Shown here one piece after another: positions 19,868 to 47,440 of a DNA stretch of 64,000 nt. Each line of letters opens with the position of its first letter. Within the stretch, counting starts at the first letter, position 1. The stretch comes from a bacterium (GTDB lineage: Bacteria > Patescibacteriota > Minisyncoccia > 1-14-0-10-42-19). Where the stretch lies: contig JAUYHD010000029.1 of NCBI GenBank assembly GCA_030690215.1, positions 14,568-78,567 of the forward strand, given 5' to 3'. Below the pieces are notes generated by a model, which searched no databases, was not told where the DNA came from, and was given only the letters and a program-made list of their open reading frames with translations. The translations under genes were made by a program, and so were the position numbers.

Positions 19868-21128
19868 TAGCGCCCCCAAGCACCTGCCTGCCGGCAGGCA
19901 GGTTTCCCTCCTCCATTGAATAGAAAACTATTGATTGGCCGGGTGTTACTGCGCGTTGCGGATCTTTAAATTGAATTAAGAATTTTGAATTAGGAATTAA
20001 GGTTTCTTCCGTTATTCTTGATTCATAATTCATAATTCGTGCTACTTGTAGCGGTTGGCGATATCGTATTCGCACCTCACATTCTAAAGGCAATTCCGGA
20101 ACAACTCCGGATATCCAATGCGCGTCGCGAACGCGCAATTCCGTTTTAAATAATGCCTCTTCATATGGACCTTCGGCAACCGTAATCGTATTGATCGAAA
20201 CATCTTTATCGGTTACATAATATGGGATGCCCCCACCCACCCCTATGCCGTGACGCTGGCCGATGGTGTAAAATTCTGCCCCTTCATGCGTGCCTATTTC
20301 TTTTCCGCCGGTAGTCAGAATTTTCCCGGAACGCTTCGGCAATACTTCCTGCATAAAAGAACGGAAATCGATATTACCAACAAAACAAAGTCCCTGGGAA
20401 TCTTTTTTTGCATGTGTCGGAAGTCCAAACTTTTTTGCCATAGCGCGGACCTCTCTTTTTTCATATCCCCCAATCGGAAATAATGCGTGCTTCAATTGGT
20501 CTTGCGTTAGCGTCCATAAAAAATAACTTTGATCTTTGTTTATATCTCTCGCAACATGTAGCATATAGCGTGCGGCAGATTTCTCATTTTGAGTTTTGAA
20601 CTTTGCGCTTTGAGCTTTCCTTACATAATGTCCAGTTGCAATATAGTCTGCCCCCAAACTACGCGCCTTATTTAAAAAAACTCCGAATTTAATTTCTTTG
20701 TTGCACATGACATCTGGATTTGGCGTAAGCCCCGCTTTATATTCACGCACCATATAATCAAACACTGATGCGCGGTATTCTTTTTCGAGATCAAATACAT
20801 AAAATGGAATATGCAATTTTTCTGCGACTCGTCGGGCATCCTCCGCGTCTTGTGCGGATGTACAATACGCCCCCTCTGACCAGCACTTCATATAGGCGCC
20901 GATTACTTCGTATTCCCCACTTTGAACCAACAAAGCAGCCGCAACGGACGAATCAACCCCGCCGGACATCGCTACGAAGACCTTTTTACCCCGAGTAGTA
21001 TTGAGGGGCTTGCCCCGAGTGCTATCGGGGGGCTTGCCCCGAGCCCCGCCAGAAGCGGGATCGAGGGGCTTGCCCCGAGCCCCGCCAGAAGCGGGATCGA
21101 GGGGTTTGTTGTTTTGATTAATTGACAT
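19857..21128 (-). CDS. mnmA: tRNA-specific 2-thiouridylase MnmA with Pro/Gly-rich repeat N-terminal extension
   Basis: PP-loop KVFVAMSGGVDSSVAA, catalytic Cys regions; N-terminal ~47 aa encoded by tandem repeats. Confidence 0.88.
   Translation of the reverse strand: MSINQNNKPLDPASGGARGKPLDPASGGARGKPPDSTRGKPLNTTRGKKVFVAMSGGVDSSVAAALLVQSGEYEVIGAYMKCWSEGAYCTSAQDAEDARRVAEKLHIPFYVFDLEKEYRASVFDYMVREYKAGLTPNPDVMCNKEIKFGVFLNKARSLGADYIATGHYVRKAQSAKFKTQNEKSAARYMLHVARDINKDQSYFLWTLTQDQLKHALFPIGGYEKREVRAMAKKFGLPTHAKKDSQGLCFVGNIDFRSFMQEVLPKRSGKILTTGGKEIGTHEGAEFYTIGQRHGIGVGGGIPYYVTDKDVSINTITVAEGPYEEALFKTELRVRDAHWISGVVPELPLECEVRIRYRQPLQVARIMNYESRITEETLIPNSKFLIQFKDPQRAVTPGQSIVFYSMEEGNLPAGRQVLGGAIIS
20990..21112. 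repeat. GC-rich tandem repeat, 36-bp unit x2 full plus partial copies, in-frame in mnmA 5' end
   Basis: gccccgccagaagcgggatcgaggggcttgccccga at 21041-21076 and 21077-21112; partial copies 21001-21040. Confidence 0.85.
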
Positions 21129-21417: not shown

Positions 21418-22332
21418 TTATTTTATTTTTTGCTGGAGCTCACGGATATGTTCGGACGCAATCCCGAATCCTATGCCTACCTGCGAAACATCCCCGACCA
21501 ATTTTACCGTTTCATTATATAAATCAACATTAAACTTTACCGGATCAATACCGCCAATTGCAAAACCGGAAGAATATCCCGCCGGAAGTGTTATTAATTT
21601 TTCAACCGGAATATCCGTCTGGCGCGAACTCACCATCCCAATAACACGCCCCGTAATAGCGGAAAAAATAGGCCCCCCGCTATTCCCTTTATTTACGAAT
21701 GCATTAATGCTTAACTGGCGAACGCCTCCGCTTTCGTCTTTTGCAGAAATAACCCCCCTATGTATTAAAATGCGCGAAAGCCCCCTATTGAACGCCGCAA
21801 TCCCGATTTCTTCCCCTATTTCAATATTTTCAAAATACCCCAAAGAAACCGCGGGAAAATTTTTTCCATCTACACCAACGAGGGCGGTGTCTGAAACGCT
21901 GTCTTTTGCAAGCACGCGTGCTTCCAAGACGCGTCCATCAACTGTCTGGACATCAAAGGAACCCCCAACAGCGTCGGCAACATGCGCGGCTGTCGCAATA
22001 ATACCTCGCGAATCAATAAAAAATCCCGATCCCTTTACTTCCCCTTCGTCCACAATCATCACGGTCGCCCTCTTTACCGTTTCGGCATATAAAGAAAAAT
22101 CTTCCGCTTCAATAAAGCCCGATTCCTTCAAAGAAACAATTTGGCGCTCCTTTTCGTCCAACGCCTTGTCCAGTAGTAAGAAACGCTCCTCAAATGAATC
22201 CGAAAGGGCTGTAAGCATCGATTCGGTCTTGCGCGCGCTTTGACCACTTTGATATGCAATAATTATTACGACACCCGCAAGAAAAAAAATTGCTAGAGGT
22301 ATCGCATGTCTTTTTAAAAAATTCATATACAT
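21418..22332 (-). CDS. trypsin-like (S1C/HtrA-like) serine protease, membrane anchored
   Basis: GSGFFIDSRGIIATAAHV (His), NKGNSGGPIF (Ser) motifs; N-terminal TM. Confidence 0.8.
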   Translation of the reverse strand: MYMNFLKRHAIPLAIFFLAGVVIIIAYQSGQSARKTESMLTALSDSFEERFLLLDKALDEKERQIVSLKESGFIEAEDFSLYAETVKRATVMIVDEGEVKGSGFFIDSRGIIATAAHVADAVGGSFDVQTVDGRVLEARVLAKDSVSDTALVGVDGKNFPAVSLGYFENIEIGEEIGIAAFNRGLSRILIHRGVISAKDESGGVRQLSINAFVNKGNSGGPIFSAITGRVIGMVSSRQTDIPVEKLITLPAGYSSGFAIGGIDPVKFNVDLYNETVKLVGDVSQVGIGFGIASEHIRELQQKIK

Positions 22333-23465
22333 TATTTAAGATATCGCGTCTTGTTCTCTTTGTGCTCTTCAAATGTTTTTGCGTAATGCGCCTGTCCCTC
22401 CGCGTCATGCAAATAGTACCAATAATCGCTCTCTTCGGGGAAAATGGCAGCTTCAATCGCCTCTAACCCGGGGTTTGAAATGGGTGTTGGAGGAAGACCT
22501 AGTCGCTTGTACACATTATACGGGGAATCAATATTCAGATCGTCTATGCTTAACTCAAAAGAACCCCTTCCCGTCACATATGAAAGTACCGCGTCAACCT
22601 GAAGCGGATAATCCTGTTCAAGCCGCTTCCATAAAATACCCGAGATAATCCGACCGTCATCCCCATCAAATGCTTCGCGCTCAATAATAGAGGCCATAAT
22701 GAGCACGTCATAAAAATCCTTCCCTTGATTTTTAATCGCCTCCCGCAATTCGGAAGTAATTTTTCGGTCAAAATTTTCAAGCATCGCATGCACTACTCCT
22801 TGTGGTGACACTCCGGGTGGGAAAAAATATGTATCAGGAAATAAAAATCCCTCAAGACCTTCGCCTGCCGGCTTTGCCTCTAATAGATCTGTTTTTATGC
22901 TGTAGTCATTTGCGAGCGGCAGATATTCTCCGTTATTTCCATAATGAAGCGAATGAAGACCGGCTGCGCGCCAAAAATCTTCTGCGCTAAAAAATCCCCG
23001 CTCTTCAAAAAAAAGACCCATCCCATACACGGTCGCCCCTTCCGCAATAGTCGCCCGAAACGGAGTTACTTCGTAATTTCCGTCGGTAAGGCGGTACATA
23101 ATGTCAATTAAAGAAAGCGGCTGCTCAAAATAATAAAGTCCCGCTTTGATATCCCGCTCATATCCGAATGCCATTACCAATACGGAAAAAAGAAGGGGCG
23201 ATCTGATAACATTATGCGAACGCAGAGATGCCGCTATTTCACGCAAGCCCCTTCCCTCTTCTATTTCAAAAATCTTGTCGCTCGGAAAATCGTATGGGGG
23301 AAGAAAAAGCATGATTGCGGTGAAAACAAGCCACAAAAAAAACGCCATGCCGGCAATCCAAAACACGCGTTTATGACGGATGCGTTCATATATCAGATAG
23401 CCCTTTTTTGTCTTATCTATACTATCCATTACGCCATTGTAACATCTCTTATGTTCATACGACAC
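22332..23465 (-). CDS. mltG: endolytic murein transglycosylase MltG (YceG family)
   Basis: N-terminal TM, YceG-like domain incl. LPPTPISNPG motif. Confidence 0.8.
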   Translation of the reverse strand: MSYEHKRCYNGVMDSIDKTKKGYLIYERIRHKRVFWIAGMAFFLWLVFTAIMLFLPPYDFPSDKIFEIEEGRGLREIAASLRSHNVIRSPLLFSVLVMAFGYERDIKAGLYYFEQPLSLIDIMYRLTDGNYEVTPFRATIAEGATVYGMGLFFEERGFFSAEDFWRAAGLHSLHYGNNGEYLPLANDYSIKTDLLEAKPAGEGLEGFLFPDTYFFPPGVSPQGVVHAMLENFDRKITSELREAIKNQGKDFYDVLIMASIIEREAFDGDDGRIISGILWKRLEQDYPLQVDAVLSYVTGRGSFELSIDDLNIDSPYNVYKRLGLPPTPISNPGLEAIEAAIFPEESDYWYYLHDAEGQAHYAKTFEEHKENKTRYLK

Positions 23466-23480
23466 GCACCCGCATAAATG

Positions 23481-23640
23481 AATAACCGCACCGCAAACAG
23501 TGCGGTATTCGCGCTGATTGCGGTCTTGCGGTTATTCCACCCAGCACATAAGTTTAAACAACGTCATTTTTTAACCGGCTTTTGTTCGATGGATACTGCA
23601 TTCATACAGCGACGTGCTATTAAACTTATGTGCTGGGTTT
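23481..23640. repeat. structured repeat element: outer 10-bp IR (aataaccgca/tgcggttatt) + 18-bp perfect-stem hairpin cccagcacataagtttaa...ttaaacttatgtgctggg
   Basis: homologous, in opposite orientation, to 45155-45280. Confidence 0.7.
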
Positions 23641-23732: not shown

Positions 23733-23776
23733 GGGTTCACCCTCGCAAGAGACGACCCAGCTTCGCCAAAGCTTTT

Positions 23777-23804
23777 CCGCCCAAGGCGGATCCGCCTTTG
23801 GCGG
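23777..23804. repeat. GC-rich palindromic element ccgcccaaggcggatccgcctttggcgg
   Basis: 27/28 identical to 6703-6730 inside leuS. Confidence 0.8.
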
Positions 23805-23845
23805 AAGCGAGGTAAGGGCTCACCATGGGTGGTTGCGGGCAGATA

Positions 23846-23887: not shown

Positions 23888-26461
23888 TTATTTTTCTTCA
23901 ATCGGAAGACATCCAAGAGTAGTTTCAACATACATATTTATGTACGTGACATTTGAAATATCGTCTTCAAGACGCTGTTTCCCGTGGCCGTAAAACCCTG
24001 ACTCTATTTCTATAATACGGCCTTCTTTAGAAAGAATACGCGCAAACGCAACCCCAAAATCAGTTACTTTTGATTTGCTGTCTTCAAATGGCGTATGGGT
24101 GCAAATCGTAGGGCATTGCAATGAAAGCCGCTGTCCCAACTCCACCTCATAATGCTGGACAGATGTCGCCTGATGCCAATTTGCAGGAACAACAACATGG
24201 GCTTTTCTATATTTCGCAAGAGCGCGTTCAGAAGGAATACTGATAGTTTCGGTTCGCGCTGTCCCCGGATGTGTTGATTTGAAATTCAAACCGGATATGG
24301 GGCTCGTATAATGAATTTTCTGCGAAAGATTGTCTTTTATTATCTTAGAGCTGACAACCTTATGAAGCCCCGCGAAATTATACCCAAGCTTTTCAATACA
24401 CGAAGCAATTTCTCGCACAAGATATGCTTTCAGCGAATGCGTGAATTCAGACAAAGGAGATGTGCCTTCTCTTTTCTTCCAGTCATCATGGTTCCCAGAA
24501 ACATACAAAAATGTAACCAGGGCGGAAAGAATCGCTTGTCTGAGAGCCTCGGGAGAATGGTCCGGAGCTTTCGCATGCCACTCTTCAAATCGCGCGCGAA
24601 ATACCTCCATAACAACCTTGCCAACTATATGCGATGCTATCTTTTCTTGCTGGCTATCATTTGCTCCTGCTAAAATCTCTCCCCGCGCGAGTAACCCATG
24701 CTGCATTCCCTGGGTAAAATCACCGGAACCTACTAATAGGTTAGCATTGCGCCGCAAAATAAGAGCTGGCACTTCATGCACAAAAAATTCTCCGTCGCTA
24801 TAGACCGCACCCCCGTGCAAACAACCAAATCCGACAATGCTATCTTCTTTGAAATTGCTTTCGTCTTTAAACGGATACTCCACTTTTTTCTGAAGCACAT
24901 ACGGCGCAAAATCATATTCATCAGAATGTTCATCATGAACGATTTTGAACTTTGATTGCTTCATGTTCTCAATTTCTTTTCTTATCTCTTCGCGAGTCGC
25001 TTTATTCCCCATGCTATGGAGATGATATTCAATCATCCCGAGACGCTGTGGTCCCTTTTTAACCTGTTCAAAAATAAGCGCGCCTAATTCCGAAAGATCT
25101 TTTGGTGTTTTAACATGAGAACGCTCTTCCTTTACCAAATCCTTAAACGACCGATTTATGGTTGAAAACGTCCCATCAGGAAGGTACTTGAAAAAGCCTA
25201 CGCCGATCTGGTTCTCTGACGAGCGCGTTTCCATGATATTGTGAAGGGCCGGAGCAGTAACCCATGGCCGTTTTGCCTCTCCTTGAGGACGCTCAACACT
25301 TGCGGCAAAACACCCAACAAGAAAAACATCCGGCAAAATATGAGACGAACGCTTCTCTACATCCTGCAATTCGCGCTGCGGAGCTGTCGAATAATACCGT
25401 GAACGCCACGATGCCTTGCTTGGAACAACCGGCAAAATAGTTTTATCAATATATTTTACATACAAAGGATTCTGTTCTGCCGTTTTGTTATTCCAAAACA
25501 CGATATCTTCCTTGCGGATTTCAGCAAGCCGTTTTGCTATCTGCTCCCCTATCTCGCCATCATAGGCAGGACTTGTTACGATATAGAGCTTTGCGAAACT
25601 GCCGTCCGGCTTTTTAATTTGCGGGATGACATTGGCAAGTTCGCTTGCGGCATCTCCATAAAAGTCGCCCGCATCAAGGAGTTTCTCTTTTTCCCTCTCT
25701 TGCAGACTCAAGTCGCGCCAAAATTCCTGCTGCTTGAGTTCCTGCAGGCGATCTTTTAAATACAGTTTTAACTGTGCTTTAAGGGCCCGCTTATCTACAA
25801 GACCACCGACCAATATATTAAAAACGGTGTTCTTGCGTTGGAACTCCTGCATGCCCCGCTTTACAAGAGCGTCGCGATATCCGTCGCTCCCATAATCAAT
25901 ACGCGAACAATATCCGATGTAGCATGCGCCATCTTCAGCCCATCCTTTTTCAATCTCAAGAACAGAAGGATTGATTTTATTCTTTTCGTGTTTCTTTTCG
26001 CGGTCTTTCCGATATTGTTCCGCATTAACCTGGGAAGAGCCCGGATCTTTTTTTACACCCCGAACGCCAAGCTGTTTGCGAATATCGTAACGCTGTTGCG
26101 GACTTAACGACCTCAACGCCGGGAACCTCTTTACCTGCTCCTCAAAAGACAGCGAAAACGCCTCCGAAAGAGCGTCATGGTCCTCTTCTTTCGGGAAAAA
26201 CGTATAAAGCAAATTCTTTTTCCGGCCAAGATTTTCCCATGCTTTCTGCAGGGTATCTCCTTTTTTCTGCCTACGCAACCTGCTAAGAATCGCTCCAAAA
26301 GAAAAATCTTTAAGCGCCTTCTCTTTCTCAACTTCTTTCTGCAGATCTTCCTTGATAACGCAACGGCTTAAAGCGTTCCCAAGCGCGTCAACATTCGCCT
26401 TTCCTTCCTTTGTTTTCACGTCCCATGTTCTCGACATGTCTGCCTCCCTGTTGAAGTCCAA
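23888..26461 (-). CDS. large hypothetical protein (857 aa) with degenerate C-terminal calcineurin-like/Mre11-SbcD-like metallophosphoesterase motifs
   Basis: GFGCLHGG (motif I with Cys for Asp), VGSGDFTQG (II), VSGNHDD (III, GNHD as in SbcD/Mre11); N-terminal ~500 aa charged, no match recognised. Confidence 0.45.
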   Translation of the reverse strand: MDFNREADMSRTWDVKTKEGKANVDALGNALSRCVIKEDLQKEVEKEKALKDFSFGAILSRLRRQKKGDTLQKAWENLGRKKNLLYTFFPKEEDHDALSEAFSLSFEEQVKRFPALRSLSPQQRYDIRKQLGVRGVKKDPGSSQVNAEQYRKDREKKHEKNKINPSVLEIEKGWAEDGACYIGYCSRIDYGSDGYRDALVKRGMQEFQRKNTVFNILVGGLVDKRALKAQLKLYLKDRLQELKQQEFWRDLSLQEREKEKLLDAGDFYGDAASELANVIPQIKKPDGSFAKLYIVTSPAYDGEIGEQIAKRLAEIRKEDIVFWNNKTAEQNPLYVKYIDKTILPVVPSKASWRSRYYSTAPQRELQDVEKRSSHILPDVFLVGCFAASVERPQGEAKRPWVTAPALHNIMETRSSENQIGVGFFKYLPDGTFSTINRSFKDLVKEERSHVKTPKDLSELGALIFEQVKKGPQRLGMIEYHLHSMGNKATREEIRKEIENMKQSKFKIVHDEHSDEYDFAPYVLQKKVEYPFKDESNFKEDSIVGFGCLHGGAVYSDGEFFVHEVPALILRRNANLLVGSGDFTQGMQHGLLARGEILAGANDSQQEKIASHIVGKVVMEVFRARFEEWHAKAPDHSPEALRQAILSALVTFLYVSGNHDDWKKREGTSPLSEFTHSLKAYLVREIASCIEKLGYNFAGLHKVVSSKIIKDNLSQKIHYTSPISGLNFKSTHPGTARTETISIPSERALAKYRKAHVVVPANWHQATSVQHYEVELGQRLSLQCPTICTHTPFEDSKSKVTDFGVAFARILSKEGRIIEIESGFYGHGKQRLEDDISNVTYINMYVETTLGCLPIEEK

Positions 26462-30100: not shown

Positions 30101-30120
30101 TTATAAACTATTCGCACAAA

Positions 30121-30192
30121 TAAAAAAAGGCGTCCTGTGTGTTGACCCCGAAATGCATGTGTTGCATAACGGGGCAAGCAGGACGCCTGTGT
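30121..30192 (-). terminator. terminator hairpin with conserved 42-nt interior, downstream of pepF-1
   Basis: stem GGCGTCCTG/CAGGACGCC + 8 U on minus strand; interior identical to 32162-32203. Confidence 0.7.
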
Positions 30193-30193
30193 G

Positions 30194-32020
30194 TTATTTA
30201 TTTTTTATACGAGATAAAAGAACTTCCATTTCCTCTATCGGCTTTTTGAGCGTATGGATGGCATTAACCCAAAACTCGGGAGATGAAAGATCTTTGCCGA
30301 TCGTTTTTTTTGCAACTGCTTCGGGGGTGTCTGAGCCAGACAACATAAGGAATTTTTCATATTTCGGAAGAAAATCTTCCCCTTCTTCTTTAAAAAGAGC
30401 GAAAAGACCCCTGCTTAGTAAATATCCGAACGTATACGGGAAATTGTAAAACATAACTCCAGTAATATAAAAATGGAGTTTTGTCGCCCAAAAATATGGG
30501 TCTTCGCCGCCTTTTTCAAGCACATCCCCAAATATAGCGCGCTGCTTTTGAACCATAATATCATTCAATCGCGCAACGCTTAATTCATGGGAGGCACGCT
30601 CTTCATATACCGCTTTTTCAAATTCGTAGCGAACCGGAATATCTAACAAATAAATCGCGCCGTGATTAATTTCCGCATCAAGCATAAGCGCTTTTTCTTC
30701 ATCAGAAACTTCGGGGTCTTTCATAATCCCCTCCGCAAGAATCATTTCTCCAAATGTAGAAGCAGATTCCGCAAGAGTCATCGGATAGTGACGACCAAAT
30801 GTTCGCACGCCCCTCATGATGTTTTCATGAAATGCGTGTCCTGATTCATGCGCAAGAGTTAATATGTCTCCTATGGTATTGTTATAGGTCATAAAAATCC
30901 TGGATTCGTTGATGAGGAGTGATCTGCTACAAAATCCGCCCGGTCGTTTCCCGGTGCGCGGCTCCCAATCAATCCACCGCTCATTGCATAGGTTGCGGAA
31001 AAATCTTCCGAGTTTTGGATATGCTCCGAAAAATGATTTTTCAACAAGCTGTTTTGCTTTTCCCCAATCAAGATGCGCGTGTATATCCAATGGAGCGCCC
31101 AAATCAAACCATGCGATATTTTCTCTTCCCATCATTTTTGCCTTTAACCCAAGAATTTTTTTCGGTAGGGCAATTTCCGAATATACCGCTTCAAGCATTG
31201 CTTCAAGCGTTTCCTGCTTTATTCCCGCATCAAATAAAGCGGTATCAAGAAAATAATTCGTCCCTCTTTTTTGGCCAAGCGTCAGCCGGGTACCCGAAAT
31301 TGCGTTCAACGCAGCTGCAGGAATGTCAGCTATCTTTGCCCACGCTTCGTTCCCCCCTCTAAATGCCGCTTCTCGTATCTCTCGGTCCGGCTTTTCCATA
31401 AGAGAGCGCCTTTGCGAAAAGGGTTTTATTTCTTTCCGCCCGTCAGGGTACTGCATCTCAAATGTCAATTTCCCCGAAGTGTTATTATATAAACGACCCC
31501 ACGCTTCAATCCCATCCACCCCAAGATCCGCGGCAAGTATTTCCATCTCTTTTGACATGGTCATGTTTGCCCTTTTTCGCATCCGAGCAAGATAATAAAG
31601 TGCGGCTCCTGCATTGCCCATAAAAGCGTCTCGCGCAATGAACGTATGGAATACGCTATCGGGCACGCCCTTAAGCGCTCTATCAAGCTCAACTTCCAAT
31701 CTTGCGTATTCGGCTTTAAGACGAGACATACCCGCCTGCTCTTCAGTATATTTCTCATTATCCGCATCAGCAGATGAAATGCATTCTACATATGATTCCA
31801 GATGAGAAAAGCGGGCCTGGATACCTTCGAGCGCAAGAAATATTTCTTCCCATTCGTTTTGATTTGAATCGCCCAACGAATCAAGCAATGATGCTTTTTT
31901 TGTAAAATCCTCTACATCCTTCCTAAAATTTCTTTTGAACGCCCTCATCCCAGGGCCATTGAATGCAAGAAAATACCTTGAGAGGTCCCAATTTCCATCC
32001 CTATTTACAGTCGCGTGCAT
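30194..32020 (-). CDS. pepF: oligoendopeptidase F (M3B)
   Basis: HESGHAFH zinc motif, M3 fold; start MHATVNRDG after AAGGAGG. Confidence 0.85.
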   Translation of the reverse strand: MHATVNRDGNWDLSRYFLAFNGPGMRAFKRNFRKDVEDFTKKASLLDSLGDSNQNEWEEIFLALEGIQARFSHLESYVECISSADADNEKYTEEQAGMSRLKAEYARLEVELDRALKGVPDSVFHTFIARDAFMGNAGAALYYLARMRKRANMTMSKEMEILAADLGVDGIEAWGRLYNNTSGKLTFEMQYPDGRKEIKPFSQRRSLMEKPDREIREAAFRGGNEAWAKIADIPAAALNAISGTRLTLGQKRGTNYFLDTALFDAGIKQETLEAMLEAVYSEIALPKKILGLKAKMMGRENIAWFDLGAPLDIHAHLDWGKAKQLVEKSFFGAYPKLGRFFRNLCNERWIDWEPRTGKRPGGFCSRSLLINESRIFMTYNNTIGDILTLAHESGHAFHENIMRGVRTFGRHYPMTLAESASTFGEMILAEGIMKDPEVSDEEKALMLDAEINHGAIYLLDIPVRYEFEKAVYEERASHELSVARLNDIMVQKQRAIFGDVLEKGGEDPYFWATKLHFYITGVMFYNFPYTFGYLLSRGLFALFKEEGEDFLPKYEKFLMLSGSDTPEAVAKKTIGKDLSSPEFWVNAIHTLKKPIEEMEVLLSRIKNK

Positions 32021-32150
32021 GTATAAAACCTCCTTGTAAAATAGCTTATTTGAATATGATAGTATCATAAAAAATAAATTTTGTATATAATATCTACCCT
32101 TCTGTGTTGCTCACCCTCCCAAATTGTGTATTAAAAAATAGGCGCTCAAA

Positions 32151-32222
32151 ACAAAAAAAGACGTCCTGTGTGTTGACCCCGAAATGCATGTGTTGCATAA
32201 CGAAGGCACAGAGGACGTCTCA
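32151..32222 (-). terminator. terminator hairpin with conserved 42-nt interior, downstream of pepF-2
   Basis: stem GACGTCCTCTGTG/CACACAGGACGTC with compensatory changes relative to copy 1, + U-run. Confidence 0.7.
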
Positions 32223-32236: not shown

Positions 32237-34048
32237 TTATGAAAGTGTTGCGTACATCTCTTCGGCTTCTTTCAGCATTTCGCGCATAATTCGTATCCCG
32301 GAATTCCAAAAAGCAGGATCGATTATGTCTACGCCTACATGCTTTTTTAAAAGAATATGCGGCGCATCGCTCCCGCCGGCAGAAAGTAAACTCATATACC
32401 CCGGCACAAACGCCTGCCCTTCTTCCAGATATTTTTGATATAGCGCGAGCACCAAGAGTTCGCCGAACGAATATGCGTAACAATAGAATGGCGAATGAAT
32501 AAAATGAGGTATATAGAGCCACCACCATGCGTATTCCTTGGTAAGCGTCAGCGAACCGCCAAACATTTTTTTATTCTCATCAATCCATAATTCATTGATG
32601 TGCTCTGTCGGGATTTCTCCTTTTTCTCTGCGCTCTCTATGAACACGTTCTTCAAAACGGGTAAAAATAACCTGACGGTATACGGTAGCAAATATTTCTT
32701 CCAACTTGCCCATAATAAGCGCCATTTTTTTCTTTGGATCTTTTTCTTGTTTTTTCAAGCTGTCAAAAAGAAGTATTTCGGCAAAAACACTCGCGGTTTC
32801 AGCAGTAGGGAGAGGTGTGTCGGCTCCAAACAATCCTTGCTTGCGCGAAAGATACTGATGAATGCCATGCCCAAGCTCATGCGCGAGCGTCATAACATCG
32901 CGCAGACGCCCCATGTAATTTACGAGGACATAGGGATGCGCGCTCGGAACGGTGCCGTGGCTAAACGCTCCTCCACGCTTTCCTTTCCGCGGTGCCGCAT
33001 CAATCCATTTGTGGACAAAAAATTTCTCGGCAATGTCTCGTGCGTCTTGAGAAAATACCCCGAACGAATCAAGCACCATGCGTTTCGCATCAGAAAAAGC
33101 AATTCTCTTTTCATCGAATACCACAGGAGCATACCTGTCATAGTCATATAACACGTCAAGACCAAGCACCTTTTTCTTAAGCTCATAATAGCGGTGCGGT
33201 ATATCATAATGTTCCTCGGAAACTTTTAAAAACGCATCTACTATATCCTGGCTTATTTCATTCTCAAGATTCCGGAATGCCATCGGGTGCCCGAAAGACC
33301 GAAGCCTGTCGTCAATCGCGCAATCCTGAAGAATGGTGTTGAAGATAAACGTAAGAGTTGTTTTGTTCTCTTGGAGGCCTTTCGTAAGTGCGTCTGCCGC
33401 TGATTTTCTAAGGGTACGGTCGGAATGATATAAGAACGCGAGTATTTCGCTCTCGCTCATCTTTTCTGTTTTTTTGCCTCTTCTCATCTTAAAAACAATA
33501 TTATTTCCAATCTCATCAAAAAGACGCGAAAAGGCCTCTGAGCCGGTATTGTTTTTTTCGCTTAGTATTTTTTCTTCCGGCTCGCTAAGCTTATGCGGTT
33601 TTTCAATTCTTTCTTTCTCTAAATAGTGCCTATATCGAGAGAGGGTTTCTTCTCCGAGCAATTGTTCTGCTACGCTATCGGAAACGCCCACCCACTCTAA
33701 TTCAAAAAACAACACATGCTTATTTATTTCTGTTGCTTTTTCTTGCATCCTGGCAAGAAATGCTCCGTATTCTTGCTTGCTCGTATCGCTCGCGTACATC
33801 AAATACGCGTATGCAAGAATTTTGTGAACGCATTCCGTTATTTTTTCCAGACCAGAAACCGCATCAAATAGAAAAGACGCGGTAAGCGAATCGGAATGTA
33901 TCTTGCCCCTATAGCGCGCGCCAAATTCTTTCGCCCTCAAAAGAGCGGACGCAATATCGTTCTCAATAGCCGGGTCTGTATGCCCCGTATATAAATCGGA
34001 TAAATCCCACGCGGGGATTTTCTCATTTTTTGCAGATTGTGTGTTCAT
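32237..34048 (-). CDS. pepF: oligoendopeptidase F paralog (M3B)
   Basis: HELGHGIH zinc motif; ~40% identical to pepF-1 by eye. Confidence 0.85.
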   Translation of the reverse strand: MNTQSAKNEKIPAWDLSDLYTGHTDPAIENDIASALLRAKEFGARYRGKIHSDSLTASFLFDAVSGLEKITECVHKILAYAYLMYASDTSKQEYGAFLARMQEKATEINKHVLFFELEWVGVSDSVAEQLLGEETLSRYRHYLEKERIEKPHKLSEPEEKILSEKNNTGSEAFSRLFDEIGNNIVFKMRRGKKTEKMSESEILAFLYHSDRTLRKSAADALTKGLQENKTTLTFIFNTILQDCAIDDRLRSFGHPMAFRNLENEISQDIVDAFLKVSEEHYDIPHRYYELKKKVLGLDVLYDYDRYAPVVFDEKRIAFSDAKRMVLDSFGVFSQDARDIAEKFFVHKWIDAAPRKGKRGGAFSHGTVPSAHPYVLVNYMGRLRDVMTLAHELGHGIHQYLSRKQGLFGADTPLPTAETASVFAEILLFDSLKKQEKDPKKKMALIMGKLEEIFATVYRQVIFTRFEERVHRERREKGEIPTEHINELWIDENKKMFGGSLTLTKEYAWWWLYIPHFIHSPFYCYAYSFGELLVLALYQKYLEEGQAFVPGYMSLLSAGGSDAPHILLKKHVGVDIIDPAFWNSGIRIMREMLKEAEEMYATLS

Positions 34049-35917: not shown

Positions 35918-36238
35918 GCATACCCCGTTAGGCTAAATCAAATGAAGAAGACCAATACCCCCGCAGGCGATTCCTCAAAAATCTGCGTCCCGCAGTAGAT
36001 TTGAGATAACGCTCACGCTGTATGGCGTCTTCTTGATTTGTGCAAGCCTCAAGATAAATGATAATAAATGGTAGTCTCATTTTTGTTGAAAAGTTATATC
36101 CCCGTGTATGCTCTTCTAATCGTTTTTTAATATTCTTTGTACATCCTACATACATATTGCCATCCTTTTTGCTCCGCAATACGTATGTCCAGAAGAGCAT
36201 ATTTGATTTTGCCATACGGGGCATACCCCGTTAGGCTA
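35918..36238 (-). mobile_element. 303-bp GIY-YIG nuclease cassette bracketed by 18-bp direct repeats gcataccccgttaggcta
   Basis: DR at 35918-35935 (contains stop) and 36221-36238 (contains start); period 303 bp. Confidence 0.55.
35928..36224 (-). CDS. GIY-YIG nuclease family protein (YhbQ/UPF0213-like)
   Basis: FWTYVLRSKKDGNMYVGCTKNIKKRLEEH ... RERYLK matches GIY-YIG core. Confidence 0.8.
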   Translation of the reverse strand: MPRMAKSNMLFWTYVLRSKKDGNMYVGCTKNIKKRLEEHTRGYNFSTKMRLPFIIIYLEACTNQEDAIQRERYLKSTAGRRFLRNRLRGYWSSSFDLA

Positions 36239-36580
36239 CATCGAAAAACGTCTTCCTTGCCCCGTAAGACAATATCACATGGTACGTCATGCATTCGCCG
36301 TTCATTCACCATAGCATAGCTGTACTCCCCATTTCTTCTGACAGCGACGCTCTAATAAATGACGTACAAGAATGCGTTATGTGATATTGTCAAACGGGGC
36401 TTGCAAAATCGCAGAATATATTTCGATGGTTACCTTTTATTGTACTTTTACTAATAATACTTCGTATCACCTCCGTAAGACGTAAAGATTTTGCTTTTCC
36501 GCCGGAGGCGGATCTGCTCGCCTCGTCTTCGCCTCGGCGAGGCGGGCCTTCGGCATGACGATGTTGCCATACGGGGCATA
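36211..36580. repeat. 355-bp non-coding segment bracketed by 15-bp direct repeats gccatacggggcata; contains repeat-family sequences
   Basis: DR at 36211-36225 and 36566-36580; interior holds 36367-36414 (~80% to 16781-16830) and GC-rich palindrome 36488-36550. Confidence 0.5.
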
Positions 36581-39109: not shown

Positions 39110-39162
39110 GTCCCGCTATTTACTTTAAATATTTTTAAATTATTGTATAGCGGGATCCCGCC
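39110..39162. repeat. GC-rich hairpin element gtcccgcta...tagcgggatcccgcc
   Basis: same architecture as 45048-45096 and 6739-6798 with covarying stem positions. Confidence 0.65.
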
Positions 39163-39198
39163 ATTTTATACGTTATAATTTTTGAATACATGGCGGGA

Positions 39199-40625: not shown

Positions 40626-40937
40626 TTACACTACTTTATGTGAAATTTCAACCGCCTCTAATGGCTTTGAAACGTCGGGATCGCTCACCAAAATAACAAC
40701 CTTGCTGTGCGGTTTTACTTCAATAAAACCGAAAGGAACCGGAATTTCTATCATATGCTCAGACTGAATCACGCCCTCCTTTGCCTGTATGTATATTTTA
40801 ACGCTTCCGCGAACCAAAGAAATCAACGGGGCATGATCTTCCAAGATTGTTATTTCTCCCATAGCGGTTTGCGCGATTATTTTTTCCGTATCACCGTCAA
40901 ACAATGTTTTTTGGATAGAATAAACAGCAACTTTCAT
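40626..40937 (-). CDS. atpC: F-type ATP synthase epsilon subunit
   Basis: N-terminal beta-sandwich sequence MKVAVYSIQKTLFDGD; operon position. Confidence 0.85.
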   Translation of the reverse strand: MKVAVYSIQKTLFDGDTEKIIAQTAMGEITILEDHAPLISLVRGSVKIYIQAKEGVIQSEHMIEIPVPFGFIEVKPHSKVVILVSDPDVSKPLEAVEISHKVV

Positions 40938-41180
40938 AAAATAAATAGGGGAAGTTTCTTAAAATTAAAAATGTAAAATGTAAAACTCAAAATGAAAAAT
41001 GACAATAAATAATTTTCAATTTTTAATTCTCAATTTTCAATCAATAGTCAATTTTCAATTTTCAAACACAAAACTAAGAAAAAGAGGGTTTGAAAATTTA
41101 GTCATTGAAAATTCAATGAAAATTAGAAATTGATAATTGAAAATTCAGTCTTAATCATTTTGATTTTTGATTTTTGAATT
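40938..41180. repeat. AT-rich intergenic region with many direct/inverted copies of AATTTTCAA(T) between atpD and atpC
   Basis: ttttcaatt / aattgaaaa motifs >10 times in 243 bp. Confidence 0.7.
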
Positions 41181-42560
<1,380 letters not shown>

Positions 42561-43490
42561 TTACCGTTCAAGCGCTTCAACGCCCGCAGTAATTTCGGTT
42601 AATTCTTGGGTGATACTCGCCTGGCGCGCCTTGTTATAGAGCAACTGTAATTCTCCTATAAGTTCCTTTGCATTATCCGACGCAGCTTTCATCGCAACCA
42701 TCCGCGCAGAATGCTCGGATGCATTTGATTCAAGAATAATATGATGCATATGCATACGGAGCAAAAGCGGAATAAGCATATCCAGCAATTCTTGAGGCGA
42801 CGGCTCAAAAAGATATTCGTAACTATACCGCGTCTCGGCACCTTCAGAAATCTCCTGTTCTGAAAATTTCCCCTTCTCGGGGGAAATGCTCTCCACTATT
42901 TCCTGCAACCCTTCCTTCGTTGCGGGAAGAATAATTTTTTTTACTACATCCTGGCGCAATGTTGAGCGAAAATTAGTATACACGACAATAACTTCGTCGT
43001 AGCGCTTCTCAAGAAACCCTTCCAAAAGACTGTCGGCAACGGGCATCGTGTCCTTAAACTCACTGAAATCACCAAATCCTAAAAATGTTTTTTCCATTGT
43101 CTCGTGCCTATGTCCAAAATAATCTTTTGCCTTTTTCCCTACGGTTACCAAAACATATTGTTTTTTTTCTTTTTTCATCCCAAAAAGCAATTCTTCCGCT
43201 TTGCGAAATACATTCGCATTGAAAGCGCCCGCAAGCCCCTTGTCCGAAGACACAACACATATAAGAGATTTTTTTACTTCCCTTTTTTCAAGCACCGACG
43301 GCAAAACCGAAGCATATTCCAAAAGCCCCTTCAGCATTTTAAACGAAGCAACCGCAAAAGGACGCGCGGATATCGCAAACTCCTGGCTTTTGCGCATTTT
43401 GGTGGCCGAAACTGCCTCCATTGCTTTTGTGATCTGGGCAATATTTTTTACGGAACGCACTCTATTTTTTATTTCTTTTGACGAGGACAT
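42561..43490 (-). CDS. atpG: F-type ATP synthase gamma subunit
   Basis: N/C-terminal coiled-coil helices, ITxELxEI C-terminus. Confidence 0.9.
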   Translation of the reverse strand: MSSSKEIKNRVRSVKNIAQITKAMEAVSATKMRKSQEFAISARPFAVASFKMLKGLLEYASVLPSVLEKREVKKSLICVVSSDKGLAGAFNANVFRKAEELLFGMKKEKKQYVLVTVGKKAKDYFGHRHETMEKTFLGFGDFSEFKDTMPVADSLLEGFLEKRYDEVIVVYTNFRSTLRQDVVKKIILPATKEGLQEIVESISPEKGKFSEQEISEGAETRYSYEYLFEPSPQELLDMLIPLLLRMHMHHIILESNASEHSARMVAMKAASDNAKELIGELQLLYNKARQASITQELTEITAGVEALER

Positions 43491-43495: not shown

Positions 43496-45022
43496 TTATT
43501 TTATTTTTTTGAATTCTTCAACGCCATTCTTTATTTTTTCCTCGATAGCTCCGGATAATTCTCCTGTCTCGCGTATCGTGCTTACAATATCCTTTTCATG
43601 CATCTTCTCCATATAATCAAGAAGCTTGACGCCGGTACTCCGTACAGCATCAACAGGAAGATCATCAAAATATCCGTGAGTCGCGACATACATAAGAATA
43701 ACCTGCTTTTCAAACGGAATTGGTTCTCGTTCACCCTGCTTTAACACTTCAACCAATACTTTCCCGCGCAAGAGCCGTTTTCGGGTTGATTCATCCAAGT
43801 CGGAAGCAAACTGGGCAAATGCCGCAAGCTCACGGAATTGCGCAAGCTCAAGACGTAATTTGCCCGCAACTTTTTTCATTGCTTTTGTCTGGGCAGCGGA
43901 CCCGACGCGCGAAACCGAAAGCCCGACATTCACCGCAGGACGATTCCCCTGATAAAAAAGTTCCGGCTCCAAATAAATCTGTCCGTCGGTAATCGAAATA
44001 ACATTCGTAGGAATATACGCTGACACGTCACCCAATTGAGTTTCAATGATAGGAAGCGCGGTGAGCGATCCCCCGCCGTGCTCCTTGCTTAATTTTGCGG
44101 CACGCTCAAGAAGACGCGAATGAATATAAAAAATATCTCCGGGATATGCCTCTCTCCCTGGAGGACGGCGCAACAAAAGCGAAAGTTCCCTATACGCCCA
44201 CGCGTGCTTTGAAAGATCGTCATATATCACAAGCGCATCCTTTCCTTGGTGCATAAAATATTCCCCAATTGCAGCACCCGCATACGGAGCTAAAAACCAA
44301 AGGGATGTCGCTGAAGAAGACGGAGCAGAAACAATAATTGTATATTCCATCGCACCCGCTTGTTCGAGCGTTGAAACAATTTTTGCTGTCTTTGATTCTT
44401 TTTGGCCTATAGCAACATAAATACAAATCGGAGTCTGATAGCGGCTATCACGGCCCTGATTAATAATTGTGTCAATGACCAATGATGTTTTCCCTAATTG
44501 CCGGTCTCCAATAATAAGCTCACGCTGCCCGCGTCCTATCGGAATCATGCTATCAATCGATTTAATTCCGGTATGAAGAGGCGTGCCTACCGGTTCGCGC
44601 ATAATAACGCCCGGGGCTTTGCGTTCCACAGGATAATATTCTCCTTCTCCCTTATGAAAAATTTCTCCTCTGCCGTCTTGCGGTTTGCCCAACGGGTCAA
44701 TTACTCTTCCGATAAGCTTGTCGCCGACATGCATAGAAAGTACCCGCCCTGTGCCTCGCACCGTATCTCCCTCTTTGATTTTGAGATATTCGCCGAGCAC
44801 AATTGCCCCGATCGTATCTTCTTCAAGATTGAACGCAATCCCCTGCACAACACCATGCTCTGTCTCGAACTCCAATTCTTCTTGAGAAGCAACTTCGCCA
44901 AGCCCCGAAATGCGGCAAATTCCATCCCCCACCTCAATCACGGTTCCTATTTTTTCCGCTTTAATTTCACGCGCAAATCCCTCAAATTCTTTTTTTAAAT
45001 TTTCAACTATAAAATCTGCCAT
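43496..45022 (-). CDS. atpA: F-type ATP synthase alpha subunit
   Basis: GDRQLGKT P-loop. Confidence 0.95.
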
Positions 45023-45416
45023 AGTATAAAAATTTTTTAATGCTAATGTCCCGACGCACCATCATACTTTTTGTAATAATGAAGTCGGGATCCCGATATC
45101 CTTTATCATATTTTTTAATAGATATCGGGAAATAAATTTTGTCTTAATTTGCACACCCATCACATAACTTTGTATTCATAAATATTTTTTTCGACACAAA
45201 GTTATGTGCTGGGTAAAGTCACCGCACTGTTCACGAAGCAAGTTTTGATGTACAAAACGTAGCTGAGTGATTACAGTGCGCAACCCCGCCTATTCCTCGG
45301 CATATTTATTTTATAATACTTCGTGAACATGCGAGGTCTTCGCCCATTCAACTACTCGCTCGCGCTCGCAGGAATGGGCGGGGGTTTGGCTACCCGCCAA
45401 AGTTTGCTTCGCAAAT
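45023..45416. repeat. 394-bp highly structured non-coding insert inside atp operon (multiple nested inverted repeats; repeat-family members)
   Basis: 45048-45130 GC-rich hairpins (homologous to 6739-6798); 45155-45213 hairpin homologous to 23540-23637; 45221/45273 and 45231/45321 inverted repeats; 45351-45390 hairpin. Confidence 0.7.
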
Positions 45417-45809
45417 TTAGGCGGGGCCAATTCCTTTAAATAATTTTCTTAATTGGCCCGCCCCACTCGCGTCAATAACCGTATCGCCATCAATAATAAA
45501 TTTTATGCCTGCAAAAAGTTTAGGATGTATTGATTCGTGGAGAATAACGTTCCCGCCGAATACATGTTCTATTTGTTTTTTCACAGCAGAAGATAACGGT
45601 GATACCGACTCAACGCTAACCGTATGCAGGCCTTCCGTATTGCTGTGGATTTTCCCAACCTCCTCCAATATCCTTCCGACATACTGCTGGTCCCGGTTAC
45701 GGACAATATACGCATAAAAACGCCGCATAATAGCCTGTCTCTCGCTGTCTTTTGCGTCCCGCAGGGCTCCATATAATGCGTGAGCGTATTGTCTCGTAGT
45801 ATATTTCAT
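45417..45809 (-). CDS. atpH: F-type ATP synthase delta (OSCP) subunit, compact
   Basis: C-terminus GIKFIIDGDTVIDASGAGQLRKL matches OSCP; operon position. Confidence 0.8.
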   Translation of the reverse strand: MKYTTRQYAHALYGALRDAKDSERQAIMRRFYAYIVRNRDQQYVGRILEEVGKIHSNTEGLHTVSVESVSPLSSAVKKQIEHVFGGNVILHESIHPKLFAGIKFIIDGDTVIDASGAGQLRKLFKGIGPA

Positions 45810-45821: not shown

Positions 45822-46331
45822 TTATTTATAGGTTGCTTTCAATTCTTTCAACGCTTCTTCTATTAACTTTTCGTCGCGCTCGGAGGCGGACATTTTACCT
45901 AACACATGAACAGTTGCCGCACGCACGAGCTCGCGCGTATCTTTATATACTTCGTCTTTTATTTTTCCTTTTTCTTCTTCTAGGCGGCGCTTTGCCTCAT
46001 CAAGCATTTTTTCCGCCTGATGCTCGGCTCCCTGGACAATCCCGACTCGTTTTTCTGACGCATCTTCTTCCGCTTTTTGAATAATACCAAGCGCTTCACC
46101 CCTTGCCCCCAAAAGAACCTCCTCACGATCTTCATTCACCCGCTTCATTGTTATTTCCGCATCGCGGGTAAGCGTAATTCCTTTTTCAATCTCTTCCCGC
46201 CTTGTTTTAAGCATCTTCATCAAAGGACCAAATGCGAATTTCTTAAGCAAAAAAAGAAGAATAGTAAAATTAATTGCTTGCGCAAGAAGCAATTTCCAAT
46301 CAATGCCAAAATTGTGGATGAATTCATTCAT
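45822..46331 (-). CDS. atpF: F-type ATP synthase subunit b
   Basis: N-terminal TM then long charged helix. Confidence 0.85.
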   Translation of the reverse strand: MNEFIHNFGIDWKLLLAQAINFTILLFLLKKFAFGPLMKMLKTRREEIEKGITLTRDAEITMKRVNEDREEVLLGARGEALGIIQKAEEDASEKRVGIVQGAEHQAEKMLDEAKRRLEEEKGKIKDEVYKDTRELVRAATVHVLGKMSASERDEKLIEEALKELKATYK

Positions 46332-46434: not shown

Positions 46435-46674
<240 letters not shown>

Positions 46675-46684: not shown

Positions 46685-47440
46685 TTAATGCTGATGGCTC
46701 ACCGAAATGCTTATAAATACCATCGTAAGCATTGCGAACACAAGCGCCTGCACAAATCCGACGAACAGCTCAAGCCCCAAAAAGGGAACAGGAACCAGAA
46801 AAGGCGCCAAAAACGCCATAATTACCAAAAGCACCTCGCCCGCAAAAATATTACCGAATAAGCGAAACGAGAATGATATCATTTTAGCAATTTCTGAAAT
46901 TAATTCAAGAACACCCACAAAAAAATCAATGGGACTTTTTATTGAGATAAACTTGGAAACATGCTTAAAAAAGCCGATCGCGGCAATACCAAATATATTC
47001 GTAAGAAACACAGAGATTATCGCAAGCGCCAGCGTAAAATTAAGATCACTCGCAGTTGAGCGGAAAAGCGGTACAAAGCGTTCTTCTCCATGCAATTCTT
47101 CTCCGCCAATAACAGACAACCCTATAGAACCCACTCCCGGCAAAATACCCATCCAATTGGAAAGGAGTACCAAAAGAAAAATAGTGGCAATGACAGGAAA
47201 ATATTTTTCTGCTTTATCACGCGTTCCAAAAACACCTTCCATCATGCCAAGAAACCGTTCTATTAGGATTTCGAATATATTTTGCAGCCGCCCGGGAACA
47301 ATCGACATCCCTCGGTATATCACGCAAGAAAACACCGCAAGAACAACGATTGTAATCCACACCATGATAAGCGTATTCGTAATAGGGAACCCGAATATCG
47401 TGCCTATTGTTTCGGCTGCGACTTCAATATGAGGCGACAT
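46685..47440 (-). CDS. atpB: F-type ATP synthase subunit a
   Basis: polytopic; conserved Arg in RLFGNIFAGE. Confidence 0.9.
   Translation of the reverse strand: MSPHIEVAAETIGTIFGFPITNTLIMVWITIVVLAVFSCVIYRGMSIVPGRLQNIFEILIERFLGMMEGVFGTRDKAEKYFPVIATIFLLVLLSNWMGILPGVGSIGLSVIGGEELHGEERFVPLFRSTASDLNFTLALAIISVFLTNIFGIAAIGFFKHVSKFISIKSPIDFFVGVLELISEIAKMISFSFRLFGNIFAGEVLLVIMAFLAPFLVPVPFLGLELFVGFVQALVFAMLTMVFISISVSHQH

Follow-up and report, generated by a model that had tools for sequence, protein, structure and literature searches.

A sense-oriented palindromic repeat family at operon junctions of Patescibacteria, represented by a degenerate copy between atpH and atpA

The 394-bp spacer between atpH and atpA in the window (the whole stretch of 64,000 nucleotides analysed here, from contig JAUYHD010000029.1 of the patescibacterial assembly GCA_030690215.1) is best read as a member of a lineage-specific family of co-transcribed palindromic repeats that fill gene junctions, are mobile or recombining and carry nested modules. 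We give this reading, in which the element is a probable processing or stability cassette, a probability of about 0.68. The spacer is inserted DNA and belongs to a repeat family whose structure is under selection, whose copies are placed in sense orientation only, from stop to start codon, and which turned over between close relatives. A typical copy consists of three hairpins, called here arm 1, hairpin B and arm 3. The family was found in a subset of Patescibacteria and is previously undescribed, having neither an Rfam family nor a literature match. The window copy is a degenerate, nested member; of the three hairpins it retains the first two and the beginning of the third.

The atp genes flanking the spacer lie on the minus strand, which is the sense strand throughout:

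46685-47440, minus strand: atpB
46435-46662, minus strand: atpE
45822-46331, minus strand: atpF
45417-45809, minus strand: atpH
43496-45022, minus strand: atpA
42561-43490, minus strand: atpG

The gap of 394 bp (45023-45416) contained no open reading frame (ORF) of 40 or more amino acids (aa) in the ORF map, which ruled out a small ORF or a pseudogene. An earlier interpretation made from the letters alone (hereafter the sequence-only reading) had described this gap as full of nested inverted repeats, and gene map, folding and repeat search agreed with it. The pairs that it listed were present, save that the one placed at 45351/45382 was off by 10 and is really the last of the following inverted repeats:

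45091-45105/45116-45130, plus 45049-45090: inverted repeat with its junction at GGGATCCC
45155-45182/45187-45214: inverted repeat
45223-45230/45273-45280: inverted repeat
45228-45238/45319-45329: inverted repeat
45341-45349/45372-45380: inverted repeat

The minimum free energy (MFE) of 45010-45430 was -155.6 kcal/mol on the minus strand, against -99.6 +/- 5.0 for shuffled sequences (z -11.3), and -152.7 kcal/mol on the plus strand (z -12.2); on neither strand did any of 100 shuffles fold as well. The predicted fold strings together six or seven hairpins that are independent of one another. An Rfam covariance-model scan of the window gave 0 matches at the gathering score and, at E <= 1, nothing except generic miRNA-like hairpin matches far below their cut-offs; a tRNA/tmRNA scan of the window found none. 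Three terminator-like sites occurred between 44900 and 45550, all on the plus strand, i.e. antisense to the atp operon, and none on the sense strand. An intrinsic (Rho-independent) terminator, for which a GC-rich stem with a T-run is wanted on the transcribed strand, was rejected on these grounds. Three Logan contigs from two independent samples were identical to the window and broke within the spacer, at 45396, 45361 and 45104. Their exact match to the spacer edges confirmed these edges and ruled out an assembly artefact as the source of the spacer; breaks inside it are typical of repeats and palindromes in short-read assembly.

The family itself was uncovered in metagenomes. A scan of JGI metagenome contigs for the hairpin-B pattern CACATAASTTT-(11-71 nt)-AAASTTATGTG retrieved 117 stretches, where our rough estimate of chance matches was a few tens, and 30 copies displayed conserved arms and linkers beyond the hairpin. 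Canonical copies were spread over no fewer than nine metagenome datasets, one of them from 0.1-um-filtered Hainich groundwater. Viral contigs yielded only 4 hairpin-B matches, so that hairpin B is no phage feature. A canonical copy measures ~150-230 nt and folds into three directly abutting hairpins, both in single-copy folding and with RNAalifold on 13 copies. Its layout is:

stop codon-(A)GGGCTT(T/G)G(T/C)C-(arm 1)-ACAAAACCTTTAC-(hairpin B, CCAGCACATAACTTTRTGTA..loop..)-GTGCTCAATGTTGT-(arm 3)-..AACAACATTGGC-ATG of next gene

The upstream stop codon is located within the basal helix of arm 1, while the A and U of the downstream AUG are located within the basal helix of arm 3 (GUGC/GCAU). Hairpin B is a nearly perfect duplex of ~20 bp, CCAGCACAUAACUUU(R)UGUA.

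Conservation of this structure was supported by covariation. In an alignment made with MAFFT and not fitted to the structure, 34 of the 66 pairs showed double-sided changes, and paired cells amounted to 97.3 %, against 83 % in column shuffles (0/500) and 32-47 % with partners slid. Covariance models of arm 1 (R1) and arm 3 (R2), both built without hairpin-B sequence, recovered all training copies and also found additional ones (scores up to 84-87 bits), among them copies that had not been selected by hairpin B (e.g. L129 at 4088, 10145 and 13259; L094 at 2390; L165 at 1973; L166 at 7383). Model R1 had no match in 80 named genome loci (~1.3 Mb, including ~20 other Patescibacteria atp regions), which indicates that the family is lineage-restricted and the model specific. 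Rfam at gathering score detected only three tRNAs in 10 carrier loci, and a full-text literature search gave no description of such elements in the candidate phyla radiation (CPR)/Patescibacteria. The apices of canonical arm 1 (alignment columns 24-44) displayed a conserved asymmetric internal loop, 5'-GA / 5'-GAA, surrounded by covarying stems. The loop is of the tandem G-A type (e.g. GC-GA-GCC..GGC-GAA-GC) and may be a protein-binding motif.

Copies were tied to genes in a precise manner. A same-strand long ORF ended at offset 1-2 (TAA of xTAAAGGGCTT) or inside arm 1 for 30 of the 33 R1 matches, and 24 of the 26 R2 matches ended in the ATG that starts a long ORF, or had it 4 nt upstream. The element was sense-oriented throughout and ran exactly from upstream stop codon to downstream ATG. 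The simple MITE (a miniature transposable element with inverted repeats) that the sequence-only reading had proposed as one option did not hold, given this non-random orientation and the lack of terminal inverted repeats and target duplication: neither of the two element ends (AAGGGCTT.. and ..ATTGGC) is the inverted repeat of the other, and no duplication was seen relative to L084, a relative with an empty junction described below. Nor were the elements gene-specific, since they occurred at ribosomal-protein, tRNA-synthetase, atp and other junctions. Locus L165, identified by Pfam as a ribosomal-protein operon (L16-L29-S17-L14-L24-L5-S14), displayed arm-1 matches after S17, L24, L5 and S14, i.e. 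four in 3.6 kb. Another downstream gene is presumably that of a seryl-tRNA synthetase, judging from its first residues (MLDIKFIRE). An identical arm 1 was joined to different arms 3 and different genes in L165 and L129. At the rplX-rplE junction of L165 (1973-2436), an arm-1 copy was followed, without hairpin B or arm 3, by an antisense, hydrophobic ORF of 114 aa (2043-2387) whose ribosome-binding site, GGAGGTGG, is strong; here a gene was inserted opposite to the direction of the operon, beside an element remnant.

The atpH-atpA junction was compared with that of relatives. The best AtpA matches among GTDB species genomes were metagenome-assembled genomes, 73-76 % identical, labelled Paceibacterota or 'Saccharibacteria'. 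Closer relatives were found in public assemblies: L084 and L085 (AtpH 80 %; AtpA 93 and 95 % across the aligned portion; AtpD 95 % for L084), L086 (AtpH 72 %, AtpA 92 %) and L087 (AtpH 57 %). In L084, L085 and L087, atpH and atpA overlapped by ATGA without any spacer, in line with the earlier statement that atp junctions are normally tight. The 394-bp spacer thus appears, from these alignments, to be a lineage-specific insertion into an originally overlapping (ATGA) junction, and it is no conserved atp feature. The empty allele of L084 reads ..AAAATTATTT-TC-ATGAAAGATTTT and the filled allele of the window ..AAAATTATTT-(AAAGGAATTGG....TTTTTATACT)-ATGGCAGATTTT, with the insert in parentheses; according to these boundaries, the window atpH ORF runs six extra codons into the insert before its stop. 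Comparison of the filled window junction with the empty one of L084 (TTATTT, TC, ATG) revealed no target-site duplication.

Relatives carried copies of their own. L086 displayed a 149-bp insert with a different central hairpin at atpH-atpA, and both L084 and L086 had inserts at atpA-atpG, where the window gap is 5 bp. Model R1 matched L086 at 3052-3114 (atpH-atpA) and 4755-4818 (atpA-atpG) and L084 at 5977-6039 (atpA-atpG), while R2 matched L086 at 3204-3251, ending in the ATGACAG that holds the atpA start codon. Occupancy of atpH-atpA and atpA-atpG was therefore plus and minus in the window, minus and plus in L084, and plus at both in L086. Moreover, the window copy was closer to the atpA-atpG copy of L086 than to the L086 copy at the orthologous atpH-atpA junction; hairpin B of the former (CCAGCATATACCTTTGC../..GCAAAGGTATGTGCTGG) displayed further compensated changes relative to the window. 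Together, these two facts call for two or more gains or losses that occurred independently, or else for exchange among copies. As copies were gained or lost at different junctions in close relatives and their arms were shuffled, the family would have spread by some transposition or recombination; it is the distribution of the copies that suggests mobility.

These comparisons bear on the proposal, also made in the sequence-only reading, of a cis-regulatory role in the atp operon. An atp-specific RNA placed between the genes of the delta and alpha subunits, be it a riboswitch, an attenuator or a controller of stoichiometry, could draw on the strong predicted structure and on mutually exclusive pairings (45370-45383 with either 45284-45297 or 45341-45349; 45228-45238/45319-45329 versus the 45223/45273 hairpin). 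The comparative data contradict it, however: the insert was absent from atpH-atpA in the closest relatives, related copies occupied other junctions, and the same modules were found at unrelated junctions and inside leuS (see below). The empty Rfam result at E <= 1, generic miRNA-like hairpins aside, and the lack of a terminator-like site on the sense strand point the same way, and we regard this as the least credible of the explanations considered.

Insertions also left traces in the proteins and elsewhere in the operon. Upstream ORFs commonly read into arm 1 before their stop, at offsets of 15-41 (L084 5977-6039; L086 4755-4818 and 3052-3114). The window AtpH C-terminus KGIGPA is element-encoded, AtpA has 517 aa in L084 and L086 versus 508 in the window, and the C-termini annotated for these genomes are encoded in part by repeats. 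The window atp operon holds a further insertion at 40938-41180, between atpD (41181-42548) and atpC (40626-40937, minus strand). It is a 243-bp AT-rich long palindrome of AATTTTCAA / TTGAAAATT repeats, at a place where L084 has a gap of 1 nt; a similar motif, TTTTACATTTTGA, occurred at the 3' end of the L084 atpA-atpG spacer.

The window copy could be resolved into the following parts:

45378-45439, minus strand: arm 1 of the junction element, the best R1 match in the window (20 bits, E 0.014)
45393-45425, minus strand: apical hairpin of arm 1, CCCGCCTAAATTTGC/GCAAACTTTGGCGGG, an inverted repeat with 15-nt arms, 87 % complementary
45219-45377, minus strand: nested block of ~160 nt interrupting the canonical linker between GCCAAACC and (C)TTTAC, from repeat search and folding
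45155-45218, minus strand: linker CTTTAC and hairpin B (CCAGCACATAACTTTGTG..22-nt loop..ACAAAGTTATGTGATGG), from motif search and alignment
45129-45154, minus strand: 5' strand of arm 3 (GTGTGCAAATTAAGACAAAATTTATT), aligned to GTGCTCAAATTAAGACAAAA of L086 4748-4891
45049-45130, unstranded: twin hairpins joined at GGGATCCC (GTCCCGAC..GTCGGGA followed by TCCCGATATC..GATATCGGGA), from repeat search
45020-45048, minus strand: AT-rich tail CATTAGCATTAAAAAATTTTTATACT, then the atpA ATG (45020-45022), from a weak by-eye alignment comparison

Arm 1 scored weakly with R1, yet lay at the expected place and on the gene strand. It begins with TTAAAGGAATTG, identical to the start of the L086 and L084 copies, covers the final 7 codons of atpH together with its TAA stop (AAAGGAATTGGCCCCGCCTAA, 45417-45437), with the stop codon at offset 20, and terminates with ..TAGCCAAACC. 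Its apical hairpin was paired in both MFE folds and holds the atpH stop codon in its 5' strand. The nested block contains hairpins 45341-45349/45372-45380 and 45223-45230/45273-45280 as well as alternative long-range pairings (45284-45297/45370-45383 and 45228-45238/45319-45329). The apex of the first hairpin, CUGC-GA-GC-GCGA-GC-GA-GUAG, forms a tandem G-A internal loop like those of canonical arm-1 apices; this nested hairpin (45341-45382) has the same GA/GA loop, closed by a GCGA tetraloop. Canonical copies keep GCCAAACCTTTAC uninterrupted, unlike the window, and the block would represent a nested insertion that split the linker.

The remaining parts follow the canonical order. Hairpin B of the window (CCAGCACATAACTTT..), with ..TTTAC on its 5' side and GTG..CAA on its 3' side, is the module common to 23540-23637 and to the 117 metagenome stretches, and its flanks (CTTTAC / GTG..CAAATTAAGACAAAA) nearly match those of the L086 atpA-atpG copy. 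Canonical arm 3 begins with GTGCTCAA. In the window, the twin hairpins stand in place of the arm-3 apex, and the tail corresponds, by a weak by-eye alignment missed by R2, to the canonical 3' strand ..CATTGAGCTCATAAATTTTAACAACATTGGC-ATG. Model R2 had no significant match in the window, arm 3 being recognisable only as its first 26 nt and this loosely similar tail. A regular-expression search of the window for canonical linker strings found no further copies; the window genome has, accordingly, only divergent versions. In the manner of bacterial interspersed mosaic elements (BIMEs), the spacer forms a mosaic of a junction element and nested palindromes found elsewhere in the window, an aspect overlooked by the sequence-only reading.

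A relative of hairpin B was found elsewhere in the window:

23540-23637, unstranded: second hairpin-B-type module (CCCAGCACATAAGTTTAA..62 nt..TTAAACTTATGTGCTGGG), from motif and repeat search

It sits in a 422-bp hairpin-rich gap upstream of mltG/YceG (22332-23465; next gene 23888-26461), and neither R1 nor R2 matched there. With up to 3 mismatches, CCCAGCACATAASTTT occurred 4 times in 64 kb, always in the hairpin arms at 23540-23637 and 45156-45213, against 0.96 expected (4 was reached in 0/100 shuffles). The two loci are further connected, on opposite strands, by a 29-nt stretch of their flanks (24/29 identical) and by the 11-nt match ACCGCACTGTT. Of the modules that had been described as shared by both regions, the hairpin was confirmed, whereas the two intergenic regions did not align significantly beyond the hairpin ends (local score 50 versus a shuffle maximum of 52). 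Their 'inverted orientation' is weakly defined because the hairpin is palindromic. The compensated G-C to C-G swap reported between the two stems proved to be real and general: among 85 distinct metagenomic hairpins, the position was complementary in 79 (63 C/G and 16 G/C) and mismatched in 6. In L088-L204 stretches without canonical flanks, the core CACATAACTTT/AAAGTTATGTG appeared in other families of hairpins, mostly intergenic, whose outer stems differ (CCCA.., CCCT.. with GTCAAC extensions, CCGAG..), and is thus conserved beyond the junction element.

The twin hairpins are members of a palindromic repeat family of their own, separate from the junction element. Those at 45049-45130 shared 22 nt exactly, and ~50 nt with similarity, with 6752-6773, which lies within the leuS ORF (5820-8456, minus strand). 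Units of the same architecture (TCCSnn..nnSGGA followed by TCCSnn..nnSGGA, joined at GGATCC) were recorded at 6701-6733, 6739-6798, 23775-23806 and 39111-39198. Both leuS units are in frame: 6701-6733 encodes SAKGGSASGGK and 6739-6798 encodes NCPDVPFISLNNEVGIPTLRR, a 21-aa insert missing from eight LeuRS relatives. The repeats at 6696-6800 resemble Rickettsia palindromic elements (RPEs), as selfish DNA inside an essential gene. The two intergenic units read GTCCCGCTAT..ATAGCGGGA joined to TCCCGCCAT..ATGGCGGGA (39111-39198) and TTCCGCCCAAGGCGGA joined to TCCGCCTTTGGCGGAA (23775-23806). In 64 kb, GGGATCCC was found 5 times and CGGATCCG twice.

Function has to be weighed against the possibility that the family is purely selfish. 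Its hairpins would then serve at the DNA level, for instance as substrates of a Y1/HUH-type transposase (REP/RAYT, IS200/IS605-derived), and RNA structure and orientation would be by-products of strand-specific insertion plus purifying selection. The gain and loss of copies between close relatives, the mosaic shuffling of arms, the breaks of assemblies in the spacer and the nearly equal folding energies of both strands all suit this view. So does the presence of TTAC 5' and ..TCAA 3' of hairpin B in nearly all canonical copies, tetranucleotides reminiscent of IS608 cleavage sites. Against it, insertion specificity alone leaves the nucleotide-precise filling from stop to start unexplained, no transposase was seen beside copies or among 20 window ORFs, and the GA/GAA internal-loop motifs are conserved while adjacent stems covary. 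Furthermore, G-U outnumbered A-C on the sense strand by 40 to 6, which favours a constraint at the RNA level or at least a strand-specific one. We therefore hold purely selfish DNA to be unlikely, though it deserves to be kept in view.

Several points weigh against our own interpretation of the spacer as part of a mobile, junction-filling RNA cassette family. Canonical copies were first gathered via hairpin B, which biases the picture of how conserved this almost invariant hairpin is. The G-U excess stems largely from two conserved positions, and sense and antisense folding energies were nearly equal (mean -2 kcal/mol, p 0.06); both leave room for a role of single-stranded DNA in transposition. 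Mobility is proposed although neither a transposase (20 window ORFs) nor a terminal inverted repeat nor a target-site duplication was found. As to the window copy, its arm-1 match is weak (20 bits), its arm 3 was undetected by R2, and its apparent family membership depends partly on direct similarity to the copy of one relative.

For the favoured cassette, an intercistronic processing or stability role would be the most plausible function. The element is probably transcribed within the atp messenger RNA (mRNA), because it lies inside the operon, is oriented in sense only and has no terminator-like sites on the sense strand. In the window, the ~160-nt block and the GGATCC twin hairpin nested inside it would have brought its size to 394 bp. 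Autonomous folding of each hairpin most likely makes the insertion tolerable and would shield the neighbouring cistrons. Hairpin B could be a double-strand-specific (RNase III-type) processing site or a protein-binding target, and a cut there would leave arms 1 and 3 as hairpins protecting the 3' and 5' ends newly formed on the two cistrons. A bolder version, possible but not one on which we would rely, casts the family as a functional system of RNA 'punctuation' in some Patescibacteria. Its cassettes, each with three coaxial hairpins that bury stop and start and oriented in sense only, would be cut in hairpin B (RNase III-type) or pass ribosomes on, would use tandem G-A loops and hairpin B as protein-binding sites, and would have colonised a large share of essential-operon junctions (ribosomal proteins, ATP synthase, tRNA synthetases).

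Passing ribosomes on could also be the whole function. In such a translational coupling or 'shunt', the folded hairpins would juxtapose stop and start and thereby allow re-initiation across 150-400 nt, the start being otherwise masked in the GUGC/GCAU helix. The abutting hairpins (0-1 nt linkers), the location of stop and start codons in basal helices, the replacement of an ATGA overlap, which is typical of coupled genes, and the lack of a visible Shine-Dalgarno-like sequence in the conserved 3' strand ..AACAACAUUGGCAUG speak for it. The geometry is not fixed, however, as in several copies the upstream ORF extends 15-41 nt into arm 1 (offset 20 in the window), and we know of no citable bacterial experimental precedent for shunting over such structures; coupling as the main role is improbable. 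Even fewer arguments sustain an internal promoter, in which the AT-rich arm-3 apex, resembling an extended -10 box (TGnTAAAAT), would drive the downstream gene as in Correia elements and Neisseria REP2. TG-N-TAAAAT-like strings did occur in several canonical arm-3 apices (e.g. L165a, L184 and L101), but the motif was not conserved among copies, its columns covary as a helix, and promoter-like sites were not enriched in the window spacer (2 versus 2.1 expected from shuffles). We deem this very improbable.

Among known systems, the family is reminiscent of the REP sequences (repetitive extragenic palindromes) and BIMEs of Enterobacteria and Pseudomonas, which are likewise extragenic palindromic units arranged in mosaics, intercistronic within operons and present in many copies. 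REP/BIME sequences are co-transcribed and stabilise upstream mRNA, and REP was reportedly termed an 'intercistronic regulatory element' by Higgins et al. in 1982. REPs are described as ~35-nt GC-rich units in alternating orientation, associated with a RAYT transposase (PMC2817692). The present hairpins are 50-90 nt long and AT-rich, all in sense, in the fixed order arm 1-B-arm 3 and placed exactly from stop to start, and no RAYT was seen in the 64-kb window; membership of the REP/BIME class was rejected on orientation, length and AT-richness. ERIC and Correia (NEMIS/CREE) elements are MITE-like repeats of 100-170 bp, imperfectly palindromic and sited in intergenic regions that are transcribed. 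They vary in presence between close strains and influence the stability or processing of mRNA, with RNase E involved for ERIC (PMC3184786). Imperfect palindromes and presence or absence differing between close relatives are shared features, but ERIC/Correia elements carry terminal inverted repeats, come with TA target duplications and are found in either orientation, whereas the present element is sense-only and displayed neither feature.

Neisseria REP2 and Borrelia upstream inverted repeats lie directly upstream of genes and include the ATG and two internal stem-loops (PMC3184786). Compared by description only, REP2 differs by its promoter and ribosome-binding site, and its description does not extend to coverage of the upstream stop codon as well. 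RPEs are palindromic repeats in frame within protein genes (PMC3184786). Their likeness is limited to the nested twin hairpin, whose unit 6739-6798 is in frame in LeuRS (21 aa) and absent from 8 relatives, and does not extend to the junction element; organisms and sequences differ. In the early region of phage T7, RNase III sites are intercistronic hairpins whose cleavage separates cistrons and leaves a protective 3' hairpin. These are single hairpins with an internal loop and not repeated mobile elements, so the likeness is functional, and cleavage of the present element is hypothetical. An integron attC site was also considered and rejected: ACATAAC/GTTATGT is one base off the consensus (RYYYAAC/GTTRRRY) on each side, the copies are flanked by core operon genes whose order is conserved (atp genes; L16-L29-S17-L14-L24-L5-S14), and no integrase was seen. 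What sets the family apart from known intergenic palindromic repeats is the fixed three-hairpin order, the sense-only orientation, the coverage of stop and start, and the very high density of copies in core operons.

Genomes of Patescibacteria are small and compact and are considered poor in repeats; here, a structured repeat family invaded junctions of the most highly conserved operons without destroying them. The window copy is degenerate, and interest lies in the wider family. Should the hairpins act as signals for processing or coupling, they would offer insight into polycistronic expression in uncultured bacteria and a compact, portable intercistronic cassette; if purely selfish, a clean natural example of a mobile element that is translationally and transcriptionally 'transparent'. 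On the practical side, the elements break short-read assemblies and cause false C-terminal extensions and in-frame inserts (AtpH, AtpA, LeuRS).

Other repeats were recorded in the window. Three tandem 36-nt GC-rich hairpin repeats (ATCGAGGGGCTTGCCCCGAGCCCCGCCAGAAGCGGG) at 21000-21095 form the 5' end of a mnmA-like ORF (19857-21128, minus strand). They precede residue 48, where the tRNA methyltransferase domain starts, and correspond to a repeat-built N-terminal extension or a mis-called start. Three tandem hairpin units of 25-33 nt (GCCCGCCTAGTCGGCGAGG) lie at 5710-5792 and separate the end of leuS from a nucleotidyl-transferase gene (5030-5722). At 30118-30171 and 32149-32202, a direct repeat of 54 nt with 96 % identity (..AGGCGTCCTGTGTGTTGACCCCGAAATGCATGTGTTGCATAACG) occurred just downstream of the two neighbouring 600-aa ORFs 30194-32068 and 32237-34048, each copy within a hairpin with a 10-bp stem. 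At 36205-36580, GATTTTGCCATACGGGGCATA was present three times with 178-nt spacing and inverted partners GCCCCGTAAGACAATATCACAT / ATGTGATATTGTCAAACGGGGC; the same repeat family was found at 16674-16811. Finally, an AT-rich 25-nt repeat (ATTCTTAATTC-like) was observed in leuS and mnmA (6296-6320, 7066-7091, 7583-7718 and 20014-20039). On the coding strand it yields the peptides RIKNMELRIE, RIKNFES, RIRNKEE and GIKNQES, and may constitute another in-frame repeat.

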